Source: Bacteroidia bacterium
GTDB lineage: Bacteria; Bacteroidota; Bacteroidia; Bacteroidales; GCA-2748055
NCBI GenBank assembly: GCA_004525825.1
Contig: SPBY01000001.1
Span: 1 to 24,936 of the forward strand
DNA length: 24,936 nucleotides
Direction: 5' to 3'
Made by a program: the position numbers and the translations under genes
Notes under the pieces: model-generated
What the model was told of the DNA's origin: nothing
Database searches by the model: none
The model's input: only the letters and a program-made list of their open reading frames with translations
In this document: positions 1,034 to 21,020 of the stretch, piece by piece
How the letters are laid out: the number at the start of each line of letters is the position of its first letter
How positions within the stretch are numbered: position 1 is the first letter of the stretch

Positions 1034-2311
1034 TTATGGATTTTGCTCCAATTCTCCTTCCGAACGGGCCACAATTGAGGCCACTGTGGAGTCACCGGTG
1101 ATATTCACAACCGTTCTAAGCATATCCAGGGGTCTGTCCACACCTAGAATGAGTGCCAGTCCCTCTACGGGTAGTCCCACCGAATTGAGCACGATGATCA
1201 GCATAACAATGCTTCCACTGGGAATCCCAGGACTGCCTATGGAAGCCAGGGTCGCAGTCAATACTATTGTCAGCTGCTGGATCAGGGTCAGATCAATGCC
1301 AAATACTTGTGCTATAAAGACCGCCGCAATGGCCTGGTAACAACTGGTTCCATCCATGTTGATGGTCACCCCCACTGGCAGTACAAAGTTGGCAATGGGT
1401 TTGGACACCCCCAGTTCATGGGTCACCTGTTTCATGGTTACGGGCAGGGTTGCAGCACTGGAGCTGGTGGTAAAGGCCACCAGTTGTGCAGGGAGAATCC
1501 CCTTCATGAAACCAAGAATCTTCATGCCTGTAAATATCCGTATCAGCAAAGGATAGAATCCAAGGATCAGAAGAAACAGTGCCACAACTACGGTCAGCAT
1601 ATACATGCCCAGGGCGGTAAATATATCGGCATCGCCGGAAAAATCCACCACCAGGGCTGCCATCAGGGCAAAAACGCCGATGGGTGCAAAGCGCATGACC
1701 ATATCCACTATCTTAAGAATCACGTCGTTGAGTCCGTCGAAGAAATCCTTGACCACCTGGGTTTTCTCTCCGGGTATCAGAACCAGGGCAATGCTGAACA
1801 GGATGGCAAAGAAAATAATCTGCAGCATCTTGGAGTTGTCACCCGCTGCCAGGAAGAAGTTCTCCGGGATCATTTCCTCGAAGAAGTGAAGAGGACTCTG
1901 CTTCTCATACTCCTGGGCCGACTCCTGCCGGGTCTCCACCTGGCTACCGAACTTCTCCCGGTACTGCTCCTGCCTGTCATCGGGGAAAACATCTCCCGGT
2001 TTGAAAATATTCACCAAGGCCAGTCCCACGGTAGTCGCGAATACAGTGGTTATTATATATATCACGATGGTTTTGTAACCTATCCTGGACAGCTTGGTAA
2101 TATCGGTCAGGCTGGAAATGCCCTTCACCAGGGAGACGAAAATCAGGGGTACTGCAATCAGTTTAAGCAATTTCAAAAAGATGTTTCCCCAGGGTTTTAC
2201 CCAGTTGGTGGTAAATTCTTCCCACCCGGTCCAAACCGAGACCAGTCCCCAGAGGATTCCAAGTCCCATTCCAATAAAAATCTTTGCCCAGAGTGGTAGT
2301 TTCTTCAACAT
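1034..2311 (-). CDS. Dicarboxylate/amino acid:cation symporter (DAACS/SDF family, GltP-like)
   Basis: 425 aa, multiple TM helices; family motifs FTTSSSAATLP, GVTINMDGT, ASIGSPGIP, DRPLDMLRTVVNITGD. Confidence 0.93.
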   Translation of the reverse strand: MLKKLPLWAKIFIGMGLGILWGLVSVWTGWEEFTTNWVKPWGNIFLKLLKLIAVPLIFVSLVKGISSLTDITKLSRIGYKTIVIYIITTVFATTVGLALVNIFKPGDVFPDDRQEQYREKFGSQVETRQESAQEYEKQSPLHFFEEMIPENFFLAAGDNSKMLQIIFFAILFSIALVLIPGEKTQVVKDFFDGLNDVILKIVDMVMRFAPIGVFALMAALVVDFSGDADIFTALGMYMLTVVVALFLLILGFYPLLIRIFTGMKILGFMKGILPAQLVAFTTSSSAATLPVTMKQVTHELGVSKPIANFVLPVGVTINMDGTSCYQAIAAVFIAQVFGIDLTLIQQLTIVLTATLASIGSPGIPSGSIVMLIIVLNSVGLPVEGLALILGVDRPLDMLRTVVNITGDSTVASIVARSEGELEQNP

Positions 2312-2333
2312 TGTTTCTATTTATTAAATTTCT

Positions 2334-5198
2334 CTATACCAGTGCTCTATATAGTATTTCTGCCGGGTGGAAGGCCTGTCTTCCCGTACCATCAAGGATT
2401 TGGTGCCTGCAAGAGGTACCCGGGGCTGCCACCAGTGTTCCTTCCCCTGCTTTTCTTACTGCAGGAAACAAAACCAGTTCCCCCACCTTCATGGAGAGTT
2501 CGTAATGTTCCTTCTCATAACCGAACGAACCAGCCATTCCACAACACCCCGAAGGAATCTCCTCCACCCTGTAGTTCTCTGGTATGGAGAGAATCCGCCG
2601 GGTCGGATCGGTGCTGGCAATGGATTTCTGCTGACAGTGTCCATGAAATTTCAGCTCTGTTGCTTCTTTAGTGAACAGGGATTTGTCAAACAATCCTTTT
2701 TCAAAGGCCCGCTCGAGGTACTCTTCCATGGTATAACAATGATCCGCCAATGTCAGGGCGCGCTCTTTATACTCTTTCCCCACCAGTTCAGGAAACTCAT
2801 CCCGGAAGCCAAGAATGGCTGAGGGTTCAATCCCCACTAGCGGTCTCTCTTCAGATACTTTGGGGAACAAAAGCACTACACTTTTCCTGGCTATCTTCCT
2901 GGCTTTTTTAAGCAGGCCCTTGGAAATATAGGTGCGGGCACTGACAGGGTGATCCACAATGTGCACCCTGATTCCCAGCCTATTAAGAAGTCTGATGCAT
3001 ACTATTCCCAGCGAAGTGTCATTGTAATTTGTAAACTCATCCACATAGAGAACCACCTCCGGGGCATCCTCCACAAGGGCTTCATTCAAACTGCGGAGGT
3101 GCTTGCGCGCCCAGCTTCGCAGGGATCTCTTCCCGAGAGTGGGAATGCTTCTGTCCCTTGCAAATCCAAGCACACTCTTCAACAGTGGAGCCGTGATCCT
3201 GCCCGTGGCCACCCGGTTGAAAATCCACGGAAACAGCATGCCCAGCCGGTTCACCACGGAAATATTGGCAATGAGCCAGGTACGCATGGGGACCGGATGA
3301 TGACTGTACCAGTGCTGCATAAACTCGGCCTTGAGCTTAGCCATGTCCACGCTGGAAGGACATTCCGATTTGCATGCCTTGCAAGAGAGACAGAGGTCAA
3401 GAATCTCGTAAATTTCGGGCTGATCAAATGGCTTTTTCAGTCCTTTTACCGAGAGCAACTCACGCAGAACATTGGCCCTGGCACGGGTGGTTGCCGACTC
3501 ATCCCGGGTGGCCATGTAGCTGGGACACATGGTGCCTCCTGTCACTTCAGTTTTTCTACAATCGCCTGATCCATTGCACTTTTCAATAAGATTCATGAAT
3601 CCACCCTCTTTCGAGAAATCGAACCAGGTAGAGAATTCCGGAGATCGGTGACCGGGTTGGAAACGCAGATGTGTATTCATGGAAGGGGTGTCGATGACCT
3701 TTCCTTCATTGAATATGCCTTCCGGATCGAACAGCTGTTTGATTTTCCGGAACAATTGAAAATTGTGTTCCCCCACCATCAAAGGAATAAACTCACCCCG
3801 GAGCCTTCCGTCGCCATGTTCCCCGCTGAGCGAACCCCGGTATTTTTTCACCAGTAAGGCGGTCTCCAGTGCGATGTCGTGATACAGCTGTACATCGCCC
3901 GGATCTTTCAGGTTCAAAATAGGCCTCAGGTGCAGTTCCCCTACGGAAATATGGGCATGGTAAACACATGCAAGTCCGTGTTTATCAAGGAGTTGATTGA
4001 ATTCGCCTATGTAATCCTCCAGTACCTCCACATTTACGCTGGTATCCTCGATCACAGTGACCGGACGCCCCTCTCCCGGGATGTTGGAAAGGACCCCCAG
4101 GCCCGCTTTTCTCAGGGCCCAAACCTTGGAGATTTCTTTTCCACTAAGCACAGGAAAATGATAGCCCAGACCGGCCTTCCTCATCTCATTTTCCATGGCC
4201 ATGATCCGCTTCTTCAACACAGATTCATCTTCATCCACCATCTCAACCATCAGAACCGCTCCGGGATCGCCCTCCAGGAAGAAGCGGTTCTTCTTCTGGC
4301 TCAGGTTCTCTTTGGTACAGTCAAGGATGGTCTTATCCATCAGTTCCACGGCTGTTGGAAAGTGTTTCAGAGCAGCCAGGTTTCCCCTGATGGCTTCCAT
4401 AACTGAATGAAAATGAATGGGAACCAGTGCTTTGTGGGGAGGAGGTAATGGGACCAGATTGAGTTTTGCCTCGGTCATAAACAGCAGGGTTCCCTCCGAT
4501 CCTGAAAGCAGGCGGCACAGGTTAAAATCCTTGTGTCTAGAGCCATCAGCCAAAAACTGGGGAGAGTTCAGCAATTCATCCAGGGCATAGCCGGTGTTCC
4601 TCCTGACCACCCCCGGGTCGGGAAATTCATTTATGATCTCAGACTGGTTCTTCTTATCACTGAGAATCGCGTTGATATCCCGGTAGATACCCCCTTCAAG
4701 ACCCTCTATTTCAAGTTTTTCCGAATATGCTTCCTGGTTCAGAGGTGCAAACTCACACACAGAAGCATCACTCAGTACTGCCCTGACCGAAAGGGTATGG
4801 TCCCGGGTGGCTCCGTACACAAGAGAATGTAAGCCGCAGCTATTGTTGCCTATCATCCCTCCGATCATGCTTCGGTTGGAGGTGGAGGTCTCGGGACTAA
4901 AAAATAGACCCGTGGATTTCAGGGCAATGTTTAATTCATCCAGCACCACTCCGGGTTCTACCCGCACCCATCGTTCCTGTTCATTGATCTGCAGGATCCT
5001 GGTCATGTGCCTCGAAACGTCCACTACCACTCCCTTACCAACCACCTGGCCTGCCAGCGAGGTCCCTGCAGTTCTGGGAATCAGGGACACATGGTTCTCA
5101 CGGGCAAAGCGCACCAGCTCACGGATGTCATTTTCATGGGAAGGATAGACCACCGCCTGCGGATACTCCTTATAATCGGAGGCATCGGTGGAGTACAT
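2334..5198 (-). CDS. FAD-binding / Fe-S / CCG-domain oxidoreductase (YdiJ / Dld-II-like D-2-hydroxyacid dehydrogenase); true start probably upstream of 5198
   Basis: PRTAGTSLAGQ and PETSTSNRSMIGGMIGNNSCG (FAD-binding domain), SGEHGDG (FAD-oxidase C-terminal), CNGSGDC and CLSCKACKSEC (4Fe-4S), HGHC...CCGMAG (CCG domain). The frame stays open upstream with family-like sequence. Confidence 0.9.
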   Translation of the reverse strand: MYSTDASDYKEYPQAVVYPSHENDIRELVRFARENHVSLIPRTAGTSLAGQVVGKGVVVDVSRHMTRILQINEQERWVRVEPGVVLDELNIALKSTGLFFSPETSTSNRSMIGGMIGNNSCGLHSLVYGATRDHTLSVRAVLSDASVCEFAPLNQEAYSEKLEIEGLEGGIYRDINAILSDKKNQSEIINEFPDPGVVRRNTGYALDELLNSPQFLADGSRHKDFNLCRLLSGSEGTLLFMTEAKLNLVPLPPPHKALVPIHFHSVMEAIRGNLAALKHFPTAVELMDKTILDCTKENLSQKKNRFFLEGDPGAVLMVEMVDEDESVLKKRIMAMENEMRKAGLGYHFPVLSGKEISKVWALRKAGLGVLSNIPGEGRPVTVIEDTSVNVEVLEDYIGEFNQLLDKHGLACVYHAHISVGELHLRPILNLKDPGDVQLYHDIALETALLVKKYRGSLSGEHGDGRLRGEFIPLMVGEHNFQLFRKIKQLFDPEGIFNEGKVIDTPSMNTHLRFQPGHRSPEFSTWFDFSKEGGFMNLIEKCNGSGDCRKTEVTGGTMCPSYMATRDESATTRARANVLRELLSVKGLKKPFDQPEIYEILDLCLSCKACKSECPSSVDMAKLKAEFMQHWYSHHPVPMRTWLIANISVVNRLGMLFPWIFNRVATGRITAPLLKSVLGFARDRSIPTLGKRSLRSWARKHLRSLNEALVEDAPEVVLYVDEFTNYNDTSLGIVCIRLLNRLGIRVHIVDHPVSARTYISKGLLKKARKIARKSVVLLFPKVSEERPLVGIEPSAILGFRDEFPELVGKEYKERALTLADHCYTMEEYLERAFEKGLFDKSLFTKEATELKFHGHCQQKSIASTDPTRRILSIPENYRVEEIPSGCCGMAGSFGYEKEHYELSMKVGELVLFPAVRKAGEGTLVAAPGTSCRHQILDGTGRQAFHPAEILYRALV

Positions 5199-5296
5199 AA
5201 TCAGTCTCAGACGATCGGTATGCAGCTCGCCATCGAGACGCGCCCGAAGCTCTTCAAACTTGCCCTGCTCTATTTGTGTGGACCTTTTCAGATCAA

Positions 5297-5304
5297 CAAA
5301 TATA
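5297..5304 (-). promoter_or_regulatory. -7 element TATATTTG for the oxidoreductase gene
   Basis: Exact TAnnTTTG; a TTTG lies 16 nt upstream (5321-5324), slightly short of canonical spacing. Confidence 0.55.
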
Positions 5305-5346
5305 GCAGAATCTCCAAAGCCAAAAAGCCCCCACCTCAGACTTTCA

Positions 5347-5374
5347 CCTTTTCCCTTTTCCCTTTTCCCTTTTA
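5347..5374. repeat. Heptamer tandem repeat (CCTTTTC)x3 + CCTTTTA, immediately after the DUF1338 stop codon
   Basis: Read directly from the sequence. Confidence 0.9.
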
Positions 5375-6172
5375 CCTGAAATCGGTGCTCTCAAAGATCT
5401 TATCGGCCGAACCAGCTATAAAACCGCTGAATATGCGACCATGCTCATCGGGATACCTCAGGGCAAATTCATAGTAACATCCCGGAATGGTATGTACTCC
5501 GTCTGTGAAGCTGACTTTCACCCGGTCTGCCAGGGTGCTTGATTGTTCCAGCAGCTGTTCAGGGCTTCCTTTGATCTCGCCTCCGGAGTTGTTCAGGGGG
5601 TATCCATTCTCCTTTAAAAAGTCATTTACCGCTTCTAAGCGGTCAAATCCATTGAGGTAGTTGATGCTTACGGTAAAATGATTGGCGCGGAAACCAAAGG
5701 CATATAGCCAGGCCGCATATTCTGACTCCTCCCTCAAGCGCTCAAATACTTCATATGAAATAGATTTGCTCAGGTTCCCCCGAAAAATTAGTTCAGGCGA
5801 TGCAAGGAGCTCTTCCGGGACTGCATCCAGTTGACTGCGGACCATCCTGCGGAGATTTTCAGAGAACTCATCCAGAATCAGTTCGCTGATAAATACACGG
5901 GGGGACTCTGCATCTTCAGGCAGCTCATAATGTCTGGCTCTCAACTTTTTAGCTTCAAAATAATAATCTCCTGCAGGAACATAGCCTGCCTCCAGAAAGG
6001 GACGGGCAATCACATCGATGTTTACCCTGGGATCGTCGAAGGTGCGAAAGGCCACATGGTCGTTCACCACTCTTTCCCCCGAATTTTGAAACAGATTATA
6101 TATAAGTTCTGCACTTGGATTCTCCCCGGTATACTGTTCCCATAACTTTTCAAATATTTCAGCAGCTTTCAT
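5372..6172 (-). CDS. DUF1338-family protein, 2-oxoadipate dioxygenase/decarboxylase (HglS/YdcJ-like, short form)
   Basis: 266 aa; NDHVAFRT, RANHFTVS, CYYEFALRY and C-terminal FIAGSADKIFEST motifs. Candidate Fe(II) triad H39/H165/E235 and keto-acid-binding R43 by analogy to HglS. Confidence 0.85.
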   Translation of the reverse strand: MKAAEIFEKLWEQYTGENPSAELIYNLFQNSGERVVNDHVAFRTFDDPRVNIDVIARPFLEAGYVPAGDYYFEAKKLRARHYELPEDAESPRVFISELILDEFSENLRRMVRSQLDAVPEELLASPELIFRGNLSKSISYEVFERLREESEYAAWLYAFGFRANHFTVSINYLNGFDRLEAVNDFLKENGYPLNNSGGEIKGSPEQLLEQSSTLADRVKVSFTDGVHTIPGCYYEFALRYPDEHGRIFSGFIAGSADKIFESTDFR

Positions 6173-17259: not shown

Positions 17260-18777
17260 CTACTCCCTGTGCTCCTTGCGGTTAAGATCAAATACTGTTT
17301 TGACTGGCGAGAAAGTATCGATGGGTACCTCCACAAAAAGGGTGAGCCATTGGGCCATGGCCCCGTTCCAGAGTCCAGGTAATTCAAGGGCTTTCAGCGA
17401 CTTCCCTCCCTGTGATTTTTCAGAGATGAAACCGGTATTCTGGTCCACATAGCGGTTTAGGTTGAATTTATTTCCCTGGTAGTCACAAACACTGCAAACC
17501 AGATCGACCGGATTGAAGTGGGTGGATGCATTTACCATCAAAATCTTCTCCGGATCTTCCATATCGATCTGGGAGGCCTCCACTATCTGCAAGGAAATTT
17601 CTCCCGATTCGGACCGCACATAAAAGGGCCCTCCGCCCGGCTCGCCTTCGTTTCGGACCATGCCGCACACCCTGATGGGGCGGTTCATGGTGGCAATCAG
17701 CCATTTTCTTAATTCGCTGGCATCCCACTCTTTCAGCATATCCGGAATGGGAATTCCCAGCCGTTCATGCAGGTAGCTTACCATGCTATCCATGCGGGTC
17801 TTCTCCACCTTTTCTTTCCCGGTCAGTTGCTGCAGGTAATAAAACACTTTGGAACGGATCTCCAGCAATACCCCACCCAGCACCTGCTTGTGTTTCACCC
17901 GGATGATCTTGCGCGAATCGGGAGCCACGTTATCTATGTTGCTGATAAAGACCAGGTCGGAATCCAGGGCATCCAGGTTCCGTATCAGGGCTCCGTGTCC
18001 GGCGGGTCTGAAAAGCAGGGATCCGTCGGGATTGCGGAAGGGTTCGTTGTCCAGATCCACTGCAATGGTATCGGTTTCCGGCTTCTGAAATGAAAAGGAG
18101 AGATCGACCATAAAGCCTGTCTCCTTTTCAATCACGGGCAAGATTCTGGCTGCTTCTGTCTGGAATCCATTCAGGTGATCGGGGGAAACCGTCAGGTGCA
18201 CCCTTACCACCTTTTCCCGATTTCCACAATATTTAACTGCTTCACGCACATGCTCCTCAAAGGCAGTTCTACGATCCGATTTGCTGTATTTATGAAATTT
18301 CAGAAGACCTTTGGGTTTGTTCCCGTAATTCAGTCCCTCTTGGCCAAGCACCTGTGTGAGAATTTCAGCAGGGGTGGTATTTTCCCCAAGCTTGAGATCC
18401 TCGTAAAATGGGTATTTCTCCAACTTCCTGAAAAAACGATCCATCTTATCATTGCTTTCAATCCACTCCTCCTGCTGAGCCAGAGTGGTCCCTTCCAGCT
18501 TATCCAGTGCACCGTACAGTGTATTAAACATGCGTGTGGCCGCACCTGAAGCAGGAACAAAACGGATGATCCTGAAGTCGGGAGCGTTGTCGAGAAAAAT
18601 ATCCAGGAAATGTTTCTCTTCCCCCTCGTAAATTACCATTACTCCTTTCCCGGGAGTGGCAGGCATGGTGATATTGGAAGGTGGAAATCCCTGTATAAAA
18701 TGCTTGATCTGTCGGTTGATCTCATCTATATGGATCCCCTTGGAGCGTATCTGCTGGAGGTCTTTCTGGCTGAACAT
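17260..18777 (-). CDS. DUF4301-family protein (probable nucleotide-diphospho-sugar transferase fold)
   Basis: FVPASGAATRMF, KPKGLLKFH, FRPAGHGAL, NIDNV, EPGGGPF, HFNPVDLVC, ELPGLWNGAM, FSPVKTVFDL. Confidence 0.85.
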   Translation of the reverse strand: MFSQKDLQQIRSKGIHIDEINRQIKHFIQGFPPSNITMPATPGKGVMVIYEGEEKHFLDIFLDNAPDFRIIRFVPASGAATRMFNTLYGALDKLEGTTLAQQEEWIESNDKMDRFFRKLEKYPFYEDLKLGENTTPAEILTQVLGQEGLNYGNKPKGLLKFHKYSKSDRRTAFEEHVREAVKYCGNREKVVRVHLTVSPDHLNGFQTEAARILPVIEKETGFMVDLSFSFQKPETDTIAVDLDNEPFRNPDGSLLFRPAGHGALIRNLDALDSDLVFISNIDNVAPDSRKIIRVKHKQVLGGVLLEIRSKVFYYLQQLTGKEKVEKTRMDSMVSYLHERLGIPIPDMLKEWDASELRKWLIATMNRPIRVCGMVRNEGEPGGGPFYVRSESGEISLQIVEASQIDMEDPEKILMVNASTHFNPVDLVCSVCDYQGNKFNLNRYVDQNTGFISEKSQGGKSLKALELPGLWNGAMAQWLTLFVEVPIDTFSPVKTVFDLNRKEHRE

Positions 18778-18818: not shown

Positions 18819-19394
18819 TCAGATTATTACCCCGTTTTTTCCAGCCTTTAGAGCCTTGATATTCAGTTCTACCACATCCGCTCCTTTTCTACTGAAAAGT
18901 GTATCCAATGCCCCTTCCAGGCTCTCTCGTGTGAGGCCCAGGTAGTCTGAGGCGGCTCCAAGCATCACCATGTTGGAAACTTTCTGGGAACCAATCTCCC
19001 TGGCAATGGCAAAGGCATCCAGGATGATGTGGTTTTTCAGCTTCCTGATTTCTTTTAATAGTGCATCCTGGGGGGGGTAGTCATCGATGTTTTCAAAAGT
19101 CTTGCTGCTGGTCACCACCCATCCGTCTTTTGCCAGGAAGGGAAGGTAACGCAAGGCCTCCATGGGCTCCACCGAGAGGATCATATCACAGCTGCCTTCC
19201 GGAATCAGGTCAGATGAAATAGGGGAATCGGAAATTCTCAGGTGTGACTGAACCGCTCCTCCGCGCTGACTCATCCCATGCACTTCTGCCTGCTTCAGGT
19301 AAAGCCCCGACTCTACAGCAGCCATTCCGATCACCGCAGCAATGGACAGGATTCCCTGTCCCCCAACCCCTGCCAGTATAATATCTCTTTTCAT
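18819..19394 (-). CDS. iorB: Indolepyruvate:ferredoxin oxidoreductase subunit beta
   Basis: LAGVGGQGIL, AEVHGMSQRGGAVQSHLR, NMVMLGA; immediately downstream of iorA. Confidence 0.93.
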   Translation of the reverse strand: MKRDIILAGVGGQGILSIAAVIGMAAVESGLYLKQAEVHGMSQRGGAVQSHLRISDSPISSDLIPEGSCDMILSVEPMEALRYLPFLAKDGWVVTSSKTFENIDDYPPQDALLKEIRKLKNHIILDAFAIAREIGSQKVSNMVMLGAASDYLGLTRESLEGALDTLFSRKGADVVELNIKALKAGKNGVII

Positions 19395-19405
19395 AATTTA
19401 TGACT

Positions 19406-20998
19406 TTACAGACTTTTGACTTTCTTGGAGGCCGTTTGAATACACTTGCGCTGGGCAATAATTACCGACACTCCATGATATTCCAACTCATCCGAAATTA
19501 TTATCCGGTTCTCCTCATGGTGCTTTCGCAGTGGATTCATGACCCTGATATGCTCCTCCTCCACCCCTAGCCCCTTGCATATCTCTAACAGCCGGTTGGT
19601 GGCATGTGACTGCTGTCCCCCGGTCATACCGGTGGTGGAGTTGTCCGAGATAATTATTGTTATTGGGGTCTCTTCCACCACTGCATCCAACAAACCAGTC
19701 ATGCCTGAATGGGTGAAGGTGGAATCCCCGATGACAGCCACGGCGGGATGTAATCCGGCATCCGACGCCCCCTTGGCCATGGTTATGGAAGCTCCCATAT
19801 CCACACAGGAGTTGATGGCATTGTAAGGCGGAAGGGCTCCCAGGGTATAACAACCTATGTCTGAGAATACCCTGCCGGGTTCGTAAGACTCCAGGGCCTC
19901 TGTCAGTGCATTGTACATATCGATGTGACCGCAACCCTTGCAAAGGGCCGGAGGCCTGTTTTTGACAATTTCAGGCACCTCGCGGGTGGGTTCTACCGGA
20001 ATTCCCAGGGCCTGTTTCACCAGCAAGGGGCTTAGTTCGCCATCCCTGGGTAGTACACCATTCAGCCGGCCACTGATACGGTGACTGTTCTCCAGGACCC
20101 CTACCAGCGACTCCTCCAGAATGGGGGCACCCTCCTCCAGCACAAGTACCCGATCCACCTTCTTCACAAACTGGTTCAGCAAAGCCGCAGGTACGGGATA
20201 TTGGGAGATTTTCAACACAGGATGGTCCATTCCAGCCGTCCCGGCCACTTCCTGGTAATAGTTGTAAGCCAGTCCACAGGCTATCACACCTATAGAAGTG
20301 TCTTTCCCTTCCTCCATCCTGTTTAAGCCTGAGTTCCCTCCCTCCTGCTCAAGCTTTTCCTGGGTGGAAAGCAGCATCTTGTAACGCTTTCTTGCAATAG
20401 ACGGAAGCAGGATAAACTGTTTCAGATCGGATGGAAGTTTCACCGGATTCTCCTCCCGGTTGGCCGTGCGCTCCACAGAAGAGCGTGAGTGGGCCAGACG
20501 TGTAGTGATTCTGAGCATTACGGGCAATGCGTACTTTTCGGAGAGGTCGAATCCATAGCGGGTCATTTCGTAGGCCTCTTGCTGGGTAGAAGGTTCCAGC
20601 ACCGGGACCATAGAAAATTTGCCGTAGAACCTGGAGTCCTGTTCATTCTGGGAAGAGTGCATGGATGGATCATCGGCCACCACCACCACCAGTCCGCCAT
20701 TCACCCCGGTCATGCCGGCATTTATAAATGCATCGGCAGCCACATTGAGCCCCACATGTTTCATACATACCAGGGCACGTTTTCCTGCATAGGACATACC
20801 AAGTCCCGCCTCCATGGCAGTCTTCTCATTGGCTGACCATTGTGAGTGTACCTTACGCTCCTGAGCCTCTTTGGATTTCTGAATGTATTCGGTGATTTCT
20901 GTGGAGGGTGTACCAGGGTATGCATATACACCCGAAAGGCCTGCATCCAGTGCTCCCTGGCCTATGGCTTCGTCTCCCAACAATACAAATCTGGACAT
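19406..20998 (-). CDS. iorA: Indolepyruvate:ferredoxin oxidoreductase subunit alpha
   Basis: GDEAIGQG, YPGTPSTEI, NEKTAME, MKHVGLNVAAD, SSQNEQDSR, RPPALCKGCGH, DIGCYTLG, TPP motif GDSTFTHSG..DNSTTGMTGGQ. ATG 20998 preferred over TTG 21004. Confidence 0.95.
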   Translation of the reverse strand: MSRFVLLGDEAIGQGALDAGLSGVYAYPGTPSTEITEYIQKSKEAQERKVHSQWSANEKTAMEAGLGMSYAGKRALVCMKHVGLNVAADAFINAGMTGVNGGLVVVVADDPSMHSSQNEQDSRFYGKFSMVPVLEPSTQQEAYEMTRYGFDLSEKYALPVMLRITTRLAHSRSSVERTANREENPVKLPSDLKQFILLPSIARKRYKMLLSTQEKLEQEGGNSGLNRMEEGKDTSIGVIACGLAYNYYQEVAGTAGMDHPVLKISQYPVPAALLNQFVKKVDRVLVLEEGAPILEESLVGVLENSHRISGRLNGVLPRDGELSPLLVKQALGIPVEPTREVPEIVKNRPPALCKGCGHIDMYNALTEALESYEPGRVFSDIGCYTLGALPPYNAINSCVDMGASITMAKGASDAGLHPAVAVIGDSTFTHSGMTGLLDAVVEETPITIIISDNSTTGMTGGQQSHATNRLLEICKGLGVEEEHIRVMNPLRKHHEENRIIISDELEYHGVSVIIAQRKCIQTASKKVKSL

Positions 20999-21020
20999 GA
21001 ACAACAGCTTTTAAGTTGCT

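Follow-up and report, generated by a model that had tools for sequence, protein, structure and literature searches.

In a 24,936-nucleotide stretch of marine-sediment Bacteroidales DNA (hereafter the window), two neighbouring genes encode a DUF1338 protein and a YdiJ-like FAD/Fe-S dehydrogenase, which probably catalyse the two closing steps of lysine breakdown, from 2-oxoadipate via D-2-hydroxyglutarate to 2-oxoglutarate. A third gene, for a symporter, follows the dehydrogenase gene. The window belongs to contig C263 of a 3.88-Mb metagenome-assembled genome that is 86% complete. The initial annotation of this DNA had proposed that the two consecutive enzyme steps are clustered here, and the proposal is upheld by a DUF1338 protein of the short branch with all four key residues, by the grouping of the dehydrogenase with YdiJ, and by the adjacency of the two genes in 44 of 80 loci. 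The genes under study are as follows.

5372–6172, minus strand: DUF1338 / HglS-like protein, predicted 2-oxoadipate dioxygenase-decarboxylase of the short 3LHO/FLO7 type, 266 aa (PF07063, PDB matches, invariant residues)
2334–5198, minus strand: YdiJ-like FAD/Fe-S protein, predicted 2-hydroxyacid dehydrogenase, 954 aa from ATG (Pfam, NCBIfam, alignment, tree)
2312–2333, no strand: 22-bp spacer from the oxidoreductase stop to the symporter start (open reading frame coordinates)
1034–2311, minus strand: SDF (DAACS) symporter, predicted GltPh/GltP acidic amino-acid type, 425 aa (PF00375, PDB matches, motif in transmembrane segment 8)

In the proposed pathway, 2-oxoadipate would arise from lysine via piperideine-6-carboxylate and 2-aminoadipate. 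The DUF1338 protein, acting as an Fe(II)/O2-dependent hydroxyglutarate synthase, would convert it to D-2-hydroxyglutarate and CO2, and the 954-aa enzyme would oxidize D-2-hydroxyglutarate to 2-oxoglutarate, with its GlpC-like Fe-S domain as the probable route of the electrons to the quinone pool. By analogy with Escherichia coli YdiJ, the dehydrogenase–symporter unit would presumably also clear D-2-hydroxyglutarate of other origin. The DUF1338 gene would be an accessory placed just upstream of this pair and lost in several species, and the symporter, a putative sodium-coupled glutamate/aspartate-type carrier, would be only loosely tied to the pathway. In this scheme the identities of the genes, their key residues, the tree positions and the linkage across genomes are observed, and the substrates, the electron acceptor, the operon structure and the part played by the transporter are predicted.

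Identity of the two enzymes

The DUF1338 gene is present in a single copy in the window's genome, as judged by a genome search. Its product scores 106.7 bits against PF07063 (HGLS; cut-off 25) over residues 29–239, and its closest solved relative is PDB entry 3LHO (E = 2e-80, residues 6–264), from Shewanella frigidimarina and to our knowledge an uncharacterised protein. The PDB search also returned rice FLO7 (6W1K, E = 4e-38), and Pseudomonas putida HglS was absent among its matches at E ≤ 0.01. In an alignment of 13 Bacteroidota homologues, comprising two sub-types of ~266 and ~302 aa, residues H39, R43, H165 and E235 are invariant. H39, H165 and E235 line up with the metal-binding residues of FLO7 and 3LHO and correspond to His70, His226 and Glu294 of P. 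putida HglS, a fully retained His-His-Glu metal triad; R43, in the motif NDHVAFRT four residues past the first His, is the retained substrate arginine.

These residues have defined roles in the characterised DUF1338 enzymes, in which the triad binds the metal and the arginine (Arg74 in HglS, Arg64 in FLO7) holds the distal carboxylate and determines specificity (PMC7286885). The four members assayed, HglS, E. coli YdcJ, Arabidopsis At1g07040 and FLO7, share one reaction despite identities down to ~15%: each turns 2-oxoadipate into 2-hydroxyglutarate, in a hydroxyglutarate synthase reaction that requires Fe(II) and O2, and P. putida HglS accepts 2-oxoadipate as its sole substrate (PMC7286885). 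Taken together, the Pfam score, the PDB matches, the triad and the arginine place the window's protein in the family and in its short FLO7/3LHO branch on all features that sequence can test, and by these features it is a predicted hydroxyglutarate synthase of the short 3LHO/FLO7 type. The oxygen need of such an enzyme is no obstacle, because cytochrome bd is present in the window's genome and haem-copper oxidases occur in its relatives.

The oxidoreductase is a single polypeptide in which a GlcD-like FAD domain is joined to a 4Fe-4S dicluster and, at the C-terminus, to a GlpC-like domain. It matches FAD_binding_4 (128 bits), FAD-oxidase_C (158 bits), Fer4_17 and Fer4_8 in Pfam, and its C-terminal 360 residues match the GlpC model NF008369 (E = 5.9e-58). 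Among the families named for checking in the initial annotation, DUF1338, FAD_binding_4, FAD-oxidase_C and SDF were all recovered in the expected genes, but CCG (PF02754) had no match in the oxidoreductase even at E ≤ 1; E. coli YdiJ likewise has no CCG match at E ≤ 0.01. The best NCBIfam model of the oxidoreductase is YdiJ (NF049975, on which E. coli YdiJ scores 1727.9 bits), and in a BLASTP alignment its residues 3–949 are colinear with residues 42–1013 of E. coli YdiJ at 31% identity.

A tree of 51 sequences was built with Shimodaira–Hasegawa-like approximate likelihood ratio (SH-aLRT) support and E. coli YdiJ as the characterised anchor. The Bacteroidota YdiJ-like proteins, whether linked to DUF1338 or not, form one clade (support 100), whose sister group (SH-aLRT 88) consists of E. 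coli YdiJ and two DUF1338-linked enzymes from Proteobacteria. A Dld-II-like paralogue of 916 aa falls far outside, on a very long branch. Relatives in the genus carry this paralogue at 916–947 aa and 26–30% identity to the oxidoreductase, and the window's genome holds a fragment of it. The 916-aa protein scores 189 bits on the YdiJ model and has a Pfam CCG match, and its nearest named ESM-Atlas clusters are 936–949-aa proteins from Pseudomonadota called "D-lactate dehydrogenase (cytochrome)", whereas those nearest to the oxidoreductase bear generic names or that of D-2-hydroxyglutarate dehydrogenase. A PDB search with the oxidoreductase returned solely enzymes of the GlcD-only form (glycolate oxidase, LctD, LDHD, D2HGDH), none of them a fusion, and so does not discriminate between substrates; the genes around both paralogues are unrelated and give no hint of a substrate.

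E. coli YdiJ recycles the D-2-hydroxyglutarate made by SerA, and its D-lactate activity is not detectable (PMC9504171). The oxidoreductase of the window is most likely the Bacteroidota counterpart of YdiJ and a predicted D-2-hydroxyglutarate dehydrogenase. Tree, domain pattern and Atlas names agree in grouping it with E. coli YdiJ and apart from the Dld-II-like paralogue, and the earlier suggestion that a generic 'FAD-linked oxidase' could be given a substrate is well founded, as a sequence-based prediction, for D-2-hydroxyglutarate.

Conserved linkage and lysine context

DUF1338 is rare in the phylum, being found in 12 of 301 genomes in a phylum-wide sample. Its neighbourhood was surveyed in 80 named loci that carry a short-type DUF1338 gene, taken from species-representative genomes and nearly all from Bacteroidota. 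A YdiJ-like gene lies no more than 10 kb away in 44 of these loci; the distance is at most 2.5 kb in 41, and the strand is shared in 37. By chance, a gene present once in a genome of 4 Mb would be expected within 10 kb in ~0.5% of cases. Cultured bacteria that carry the pair include Flavobacterium aquidurense DSM 18293 and F. davisii 90-106, with 3.7 kb between the two genes in the latter. The longer type of DUF1338 shows the same pairing in one genome (G227), where a protein 36% identical to that of the window is encoded directly before a YdiJ-like gene, and in another (G107) a GlcD-only FAD oxidase occupies the place of the YdiJ-like gene. The arrangement is not due to chance: of 24 genomes searched in the window's genus, 15 have it, and it is also seen in other families. 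Conservation of the adjacency in relatives, on which the initial annotation had staked its proposal in advance, is thus borne out for two DUF1338 sub-types.

The pairing itself has been described before. Many DUF1338 genes adjoin annotated 'glycolate dehydrogenases', an adjacency that Thompson et al. (2019) tied to the steps catalysed by PP_5260 and PP_4493; in P. putida, HglS (PP_5260) and YdiJ (PP_4493) carry out the final two steps of D-lysine/2-aminoadipate catabolism, and the Bacteroidetes DUF1338 homologues form a monophyletic clade (10.1101/450254). The DUF1338–YdiJ-like pairing is therefore already in the literature and common in Bacteroidota, and the window provides a further case of it, which tempers the novelty originally attached to the cluster.

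In 22 of the 80 loci, a lipoate-protein ligase gene (LplA-B_cat) lies directly upstream of the DUF1338 and YdiJ-like genes. These loci include L012, L050, L053, L057–L059, L064 and L066–L072, many of them from Bacteroidales and Lentimicrobiaceae metagenome-assembled genomes (MAGs). The ligase is not at this position in the window's genus.

Other neighbours of DUF1338 belong to lysine catabolism. The aldehyde dehydrogenase adjoining DUF1338 in two genomes (G215 and G051; loci scanned, L023 and L028) scores above the equivalog cut-off of NF050084, the model for L-piperideine-6-carboxylate (P6C) dehydrogenase, and close homologues of it adjoin DUF1338 in Flavobacterium, Cyclobacteriaceae and Cytophagales loci. 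A saccharopine dehydrogenase gene is also found beside DUF1338 in G215, and in two proteobacterial MAGs the genes for saccharopine dehydrogenase, P6C dehydrogenase, DUF1338 and YdiJ are consecutive. These neighbours in other Bacteroidota and in Proteobacteria point to lysine as the source of the substrate, and together with the DUF1338/YdiJ-like linkage they lend good support to the two-enzyme assignment. Within the window's genus, P6C dehydrogenase is encoded elsewhere in the genome in 22 of 24 genomes, with no lysine cluster around its gene; in other families of the order it was found in four genomes, both DUF1338 carriers among them. The genome search for upstream lysine genes that had been suggested for this DNA was accordingly productive at the level of the genus; it yielded no P6C dehydrogenase for this assembly and no L-lysine 6-transaminase above the cut-off.

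Gene content in the genus, the symporter and alternative readings

In all loci fetched from the genus, the symporter gene follows the oxidoreductase gene in one direction, and pta, ackA, ptb and buk run in the opposite direction. Where a DUF1338 gene is present in these loci, it is always found on the side of the oxidoreductase gene that faces pta. It was found in 15 of the 24 genus genomes searched and is cleanly missing from contiguous loci in five that are 96–99% complete. Carriers and non-carriers of DUF1338 are intermixed in the oxidoreductase tree, which suggests repeated loss or gain. In G313 (L013, 10663–11461) three in-frame stop codons mark the DUF1338 gene as a pseudogene, beside an intact oxidoreductase gene and symporter gene, a state that resembles ongoing gene loss.

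In four genus genomes, an insert of two genes stands between DUF1338 and the oxidoreductase gene. An aminotransferase was sought in the inserts of these four relatives and none was found, a ~210-aa protein and an HTH_34 regulator being encoded instead. Such a two-gene cassette upstream of the oxidoreductase gene (L006, 9115–10106; L007, 4832–5790; L009, 10148–11078; L014, 7186–8144), specifying a ~210-aa protein without a Pfam family together with a winged-helix regulator of 100 aa (HTH_34), occurs in genus members with and without DUF1338 and may be a local regulator. Across the genus, the oxidoreductase–symporter pair is a stable unit and DUF1338 an accessory, dispensable gene. The compact three-gene module that had been proposed gives way to a different picture, with DUF1338 as a dispensable addition to that pair and the symporter rarely linked to both enzymes.

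The symporter matches SDF (PF00375) with 436.2 bits over residues 7–416. Of the solved structures in the PDB it matches the aspartate transporter 9BGZ best (E = 3.7e-104), with GltPh at ~1e-77, and it aligns with acidic amino-acid carriers over nearly its full length (residues 5–423 against GltPh; E values from 1e-76 to 1e-104). In transmembrane segment 8 (TM8) it reads DRPLDMLRTVVNITGD (LDMLRT), compared with DRILDMARTALNVVGN (LDMART) in E. coli GltP and DRFMSEARALTNLVGN (MSEARA) in E. coli DctA. The symporter and GltP share the aspartate and the arginine of this segment, whereas the DctA motif differs. We take the aspartate (D394 in GltPh) to bind the amino group of the substrate and the arginine (R397 in GltPh) to bind its distal carboxylate. 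The score of the symporter lies under both equivalog cut-offs (GltP, 267 vs 638 bits; DctA, 258 vs 513 bits).

The GltP-type TM8 motif predicts an acidic amino acid as the cargo and argues against 2-oxoadipate or 2-hydroxyglutarate. Judged by this motif, the protein is most likely a glutamate/aspartate-type carrier rather than a dicarboxylate carrier of the DctA type. Of the cargoes put forward at that time, an acidic amino acid of the glutamate/aspartate type is retained, with 2-aminoadipate as a possible case, and 2-oxoadipate and 2-hydroxyglutarate become less likely. The link of the symporter to the lysine pathway is weak. It is linked to the DUF1338–oxidoreductase pair in 3 of the 80 loci (the window's genus and one Flavobacteriaceae MAG) and remains beside the oxidoreductase gene in genus members without DUF1338, neither of which fits the dedicated uptake system that had been envisaged.

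A more specific role for the symporter, as a dedicated importer of 2-aminoadipate, is conceivable but unlikely. A general transaminase would then convert the imported compound to 2-oxoadipate with the formation of glutamate, and the two enzymes would restore the 2-oxoglutarate consumed. 2-Aminoadipate is glutamate with one additional methylene group, the TM8 motif suits acidic amino acids that carry both an alpha-amino group and a distal carboxylate, and the symporter gene begins 22 bp downstream of the dehydrogenase gene. The scarcity of loci that link it to the pair, its retention beside the dehydrogenase where DUF1338 is lacking, and its closest solved relatives, which are aspartate carriers, nevertheless all speak against such dedication, and its sequence does not separate 2-aminoadipate from glutamate or aspartate. 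If true, the system would constitute a closed O2-dependent cycle that yields glutamate from imported 2-aminoadipate while replenishing the 2-oxoglutarate it uses as co-substrate, and the symporter would be the first bacterial transporter assigned to 2-aminoadipate.

Several observations weigh against the assignment of the two enzymes to lysine breakdown. P6C dehydrogenase was not found in the window's assembly (86% complete), L-lysine 6-transaminase (TIGR03251) has no match above its cut-off, and the only candidates for opening the pathway from lysine are two saccharopine-dehydrogenase-family proteins, which are 25–28% identical to the DUF1338-linked one and to which NCBIfam assigned no family. 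The oxidoreductase scores 615.8 bits on the YdiJ model, under the equivalog cut-off of 1350, and D-lactate activity is excluded only indirectly, because the tree contains no experimentally characterised Dld-II (D-lactate) sequence and the Dld-II side is represented by the Dld-II-like paralogue. The YdiJ-like gene occurs in most genomes of the order, those without DUF1338 included, and is conserved beside pta-ackA-ptb-buk in three families (that of the genus, f58 and f61). In Desulfovibrio, a D-lactate dehydrogenase gene is clustered with por, pta and ack (PMC4481167). As for expression, a common transcript of the putative operon cannot be read from RNA-library contigs, and RNA libraries can contain DNA.

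Part of this evidence would suit a different function for the 954-aa enzyme, namely a quinone-linked dehydrogenase for D-lactate or other monocarboxylic 2-hydroxyacids of the Dld-II kind, which would supply pyruvate to the divergent pta-ackA genes and sit beside DUF1338 by coincidence. The GlcD–GlpC fusion architecture is the same overall as in Dld-II enzymes, the gene stands head-to-head with pta-ackA-ptb-buk in the genus, f58 and f61, clustering with por, pta and ack is known for the D-lactate dehydrogenase gene of Desulfovibrio (PMC4481167), and the gene of the window's lineage persists without DUF1338. We nevertheless regard this function as improbable. The genus has a separate 916–947-aa paralogue, present as a fragment here, which combines a CCG match with Atlas neighbours named D-lactate dehydrogenase; the window's enzyme groups instead with E. 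coli YdiJ, in which such activity is not detectable (PMC9504171). The neighbouring carrier is of the amino-acid type and no lactate permease, and with 44 of 80 loci linked against ~0.5% expected, an incidental adjacency is hard to maintain.

Equally little credence can be given to another 2-oxoacid, or a non-catabolic role, for the short DUF1338 protein, with the pair handling a different 2-oxo/2-hydroxy acid couple: the short-type assays cover only plant FLO7 and At1g07040 and no bacterial member, the lysine-opening step has only candidates of unassigned function in the window's genus, DUF1338 is dispensable in 9 of its 24 genomes, and a lipoate-protein ligase gene precedes it in many Bacteroidales, but the specificity arginine and metal triad are invariant, the four assayed enzymes share one reaction across the family with HglS taking 2-oxoadipate only, and the P6C and saccharopine dehydrogenase neighbours elsewhere point to lysine.

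The preferred assignment, 2-oxoadipate to 2-oxoglutarate via D-2-hydroxyglutarate, opens no new kind of system. It does supply a predicted substrate, D-2-hydroxyglutarate, for a large Bacteroidota clade annotated "FAD-binding and (Fe-S)-binding domain-containing protein", and suggests that the HglS route of lysine degradation is widespread in environmental Bacteroidota, facultative sediment Bacteroidales included. It also separates two entities that had been merged, a stable dehydrogenase–carrier pair and an oxygenase gene gained or lost within one genus. The patchiness of DUF1338 might be exploited as a natural experiment to learn under which conditions O2-dependent amino-acid catabolism pays in sediments.

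Locus features and comparison with known systems

The description of the three genes as co-oriented, with a 22-bp gap between the oxidoreductase and the symporter, is confirmed by the open reading frame listing, which places all three on the minus strand at the coordinates given above. The corresponding spacers measure 22–40 bp in all genus loci examined; the DUF1338–oxidoreductase gap is 173 bp, and pta, ackA, ptb and buk diverge from the DUF1338 side of the locus. A tandem run of AAGGGA/AAAGGG units (5340–5371, minus strand) directly follows the DUF1338 stop codon, and 5340–5375 was skipped as a repeat when RNA-library contigs were matched to the window.

Ahead of the ATG at 5198, the reading frame of the oxidoreductase extends upstream through 64 codons without a stop. 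Compared with a relative (G318), the 25 codons before this ATG differ by 12 synonymous changes and by 7 others that are mostly conservative, a pattern by which at least ~22 upstream codons are clearly coding. This coding stretch (5199–5273, minus strand) contains no in-frame ATG, GTG or TTG. An ATA at 5271–5273, which lies 23 nt past a putative promoter box, is shared by six genus loci, and other relatives have ATG at about its position. The true start is probably ~25 codons upstream of the annotated ATG, and translation may begin at the conserved non-canonical ATA codon. The box is the following feature.

5297–5304, minus strand: putative -7-type promoter box TATATTTG, matching the Bacteroidota consensus TAnnTTTG

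Five relatives, one of them without DUF1338, preserve the box together with its flanks (TGCTATATTTGTTGG), and a separate promoter for the oxidoreductase gene is therefore probable. A scan for sigma-70 promoters and terminators, which is unsuited to Bacteroidota promoters, gave counts no higher than in shuffled sequence.

DNA near-identical to the window occurs in sediment metagenomes (marine, estuarine and other). Each of the three genes is also covered in part by contigs from RNA libraries of sediment and estuary samples, some of these contigs being identical to the window. Being read-sized, the contigs neither reveal where transcripts end nor span the junctions between genes, and parts of the window without RNA cover are not evidence of silence. 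Elsewhere in the window, the intervals 18819–21004 (minus strand) and 17260–18777 encode the two subunits of an indolepyruvate-type 2-oxoacid:ferredoxin oxidoreductase (POR_N/TPP and POR gamma domains) and an adjoining DUF4301 protein. This oxidoreductase pair, together with ptb-buk, suggests that amino-acid-derived 2-oxoacids are fermented.

Among known systems, the window's pair resembles P. putida HglS and YdiJ in its predicted two-step chemistry and in the pairing of the two protein families, although its DUF1338 protein is strongly diverged from HglS, as the absence of the latter from the PDB matches indicates. With FLO7, At1g07040 and 3LHO this protein shares the short DUF1338 form and the conserved triad and arginine. 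It differs from FLO7 in being bacterial, shorter and without a transit peptide, and lacks the insertions of the ~302-aa Bacteroidota and plant forms. The symporter has the NMDGT and DxxRTxxNxxGD motifs of GltPh, GltTk and E. coli GltP and aligns with them over nearly its full length, but stays under the NCBIfam cut-off for GltP. Like E. coli YdiJ, the oxidoreductase combines FAD_binding_4, FAD-oxidase_C, a 4Fe-4S dicluster and a GlpC-like C-terminal part and lacks CCG; it differs in its 31% identity, its score (616 bits against the cut-off of 1350) and a length shorter by ~40–60 residues. In E. coli, ydiJ is not adjacent to ydcJ, unlike the corresponding pair in the window.

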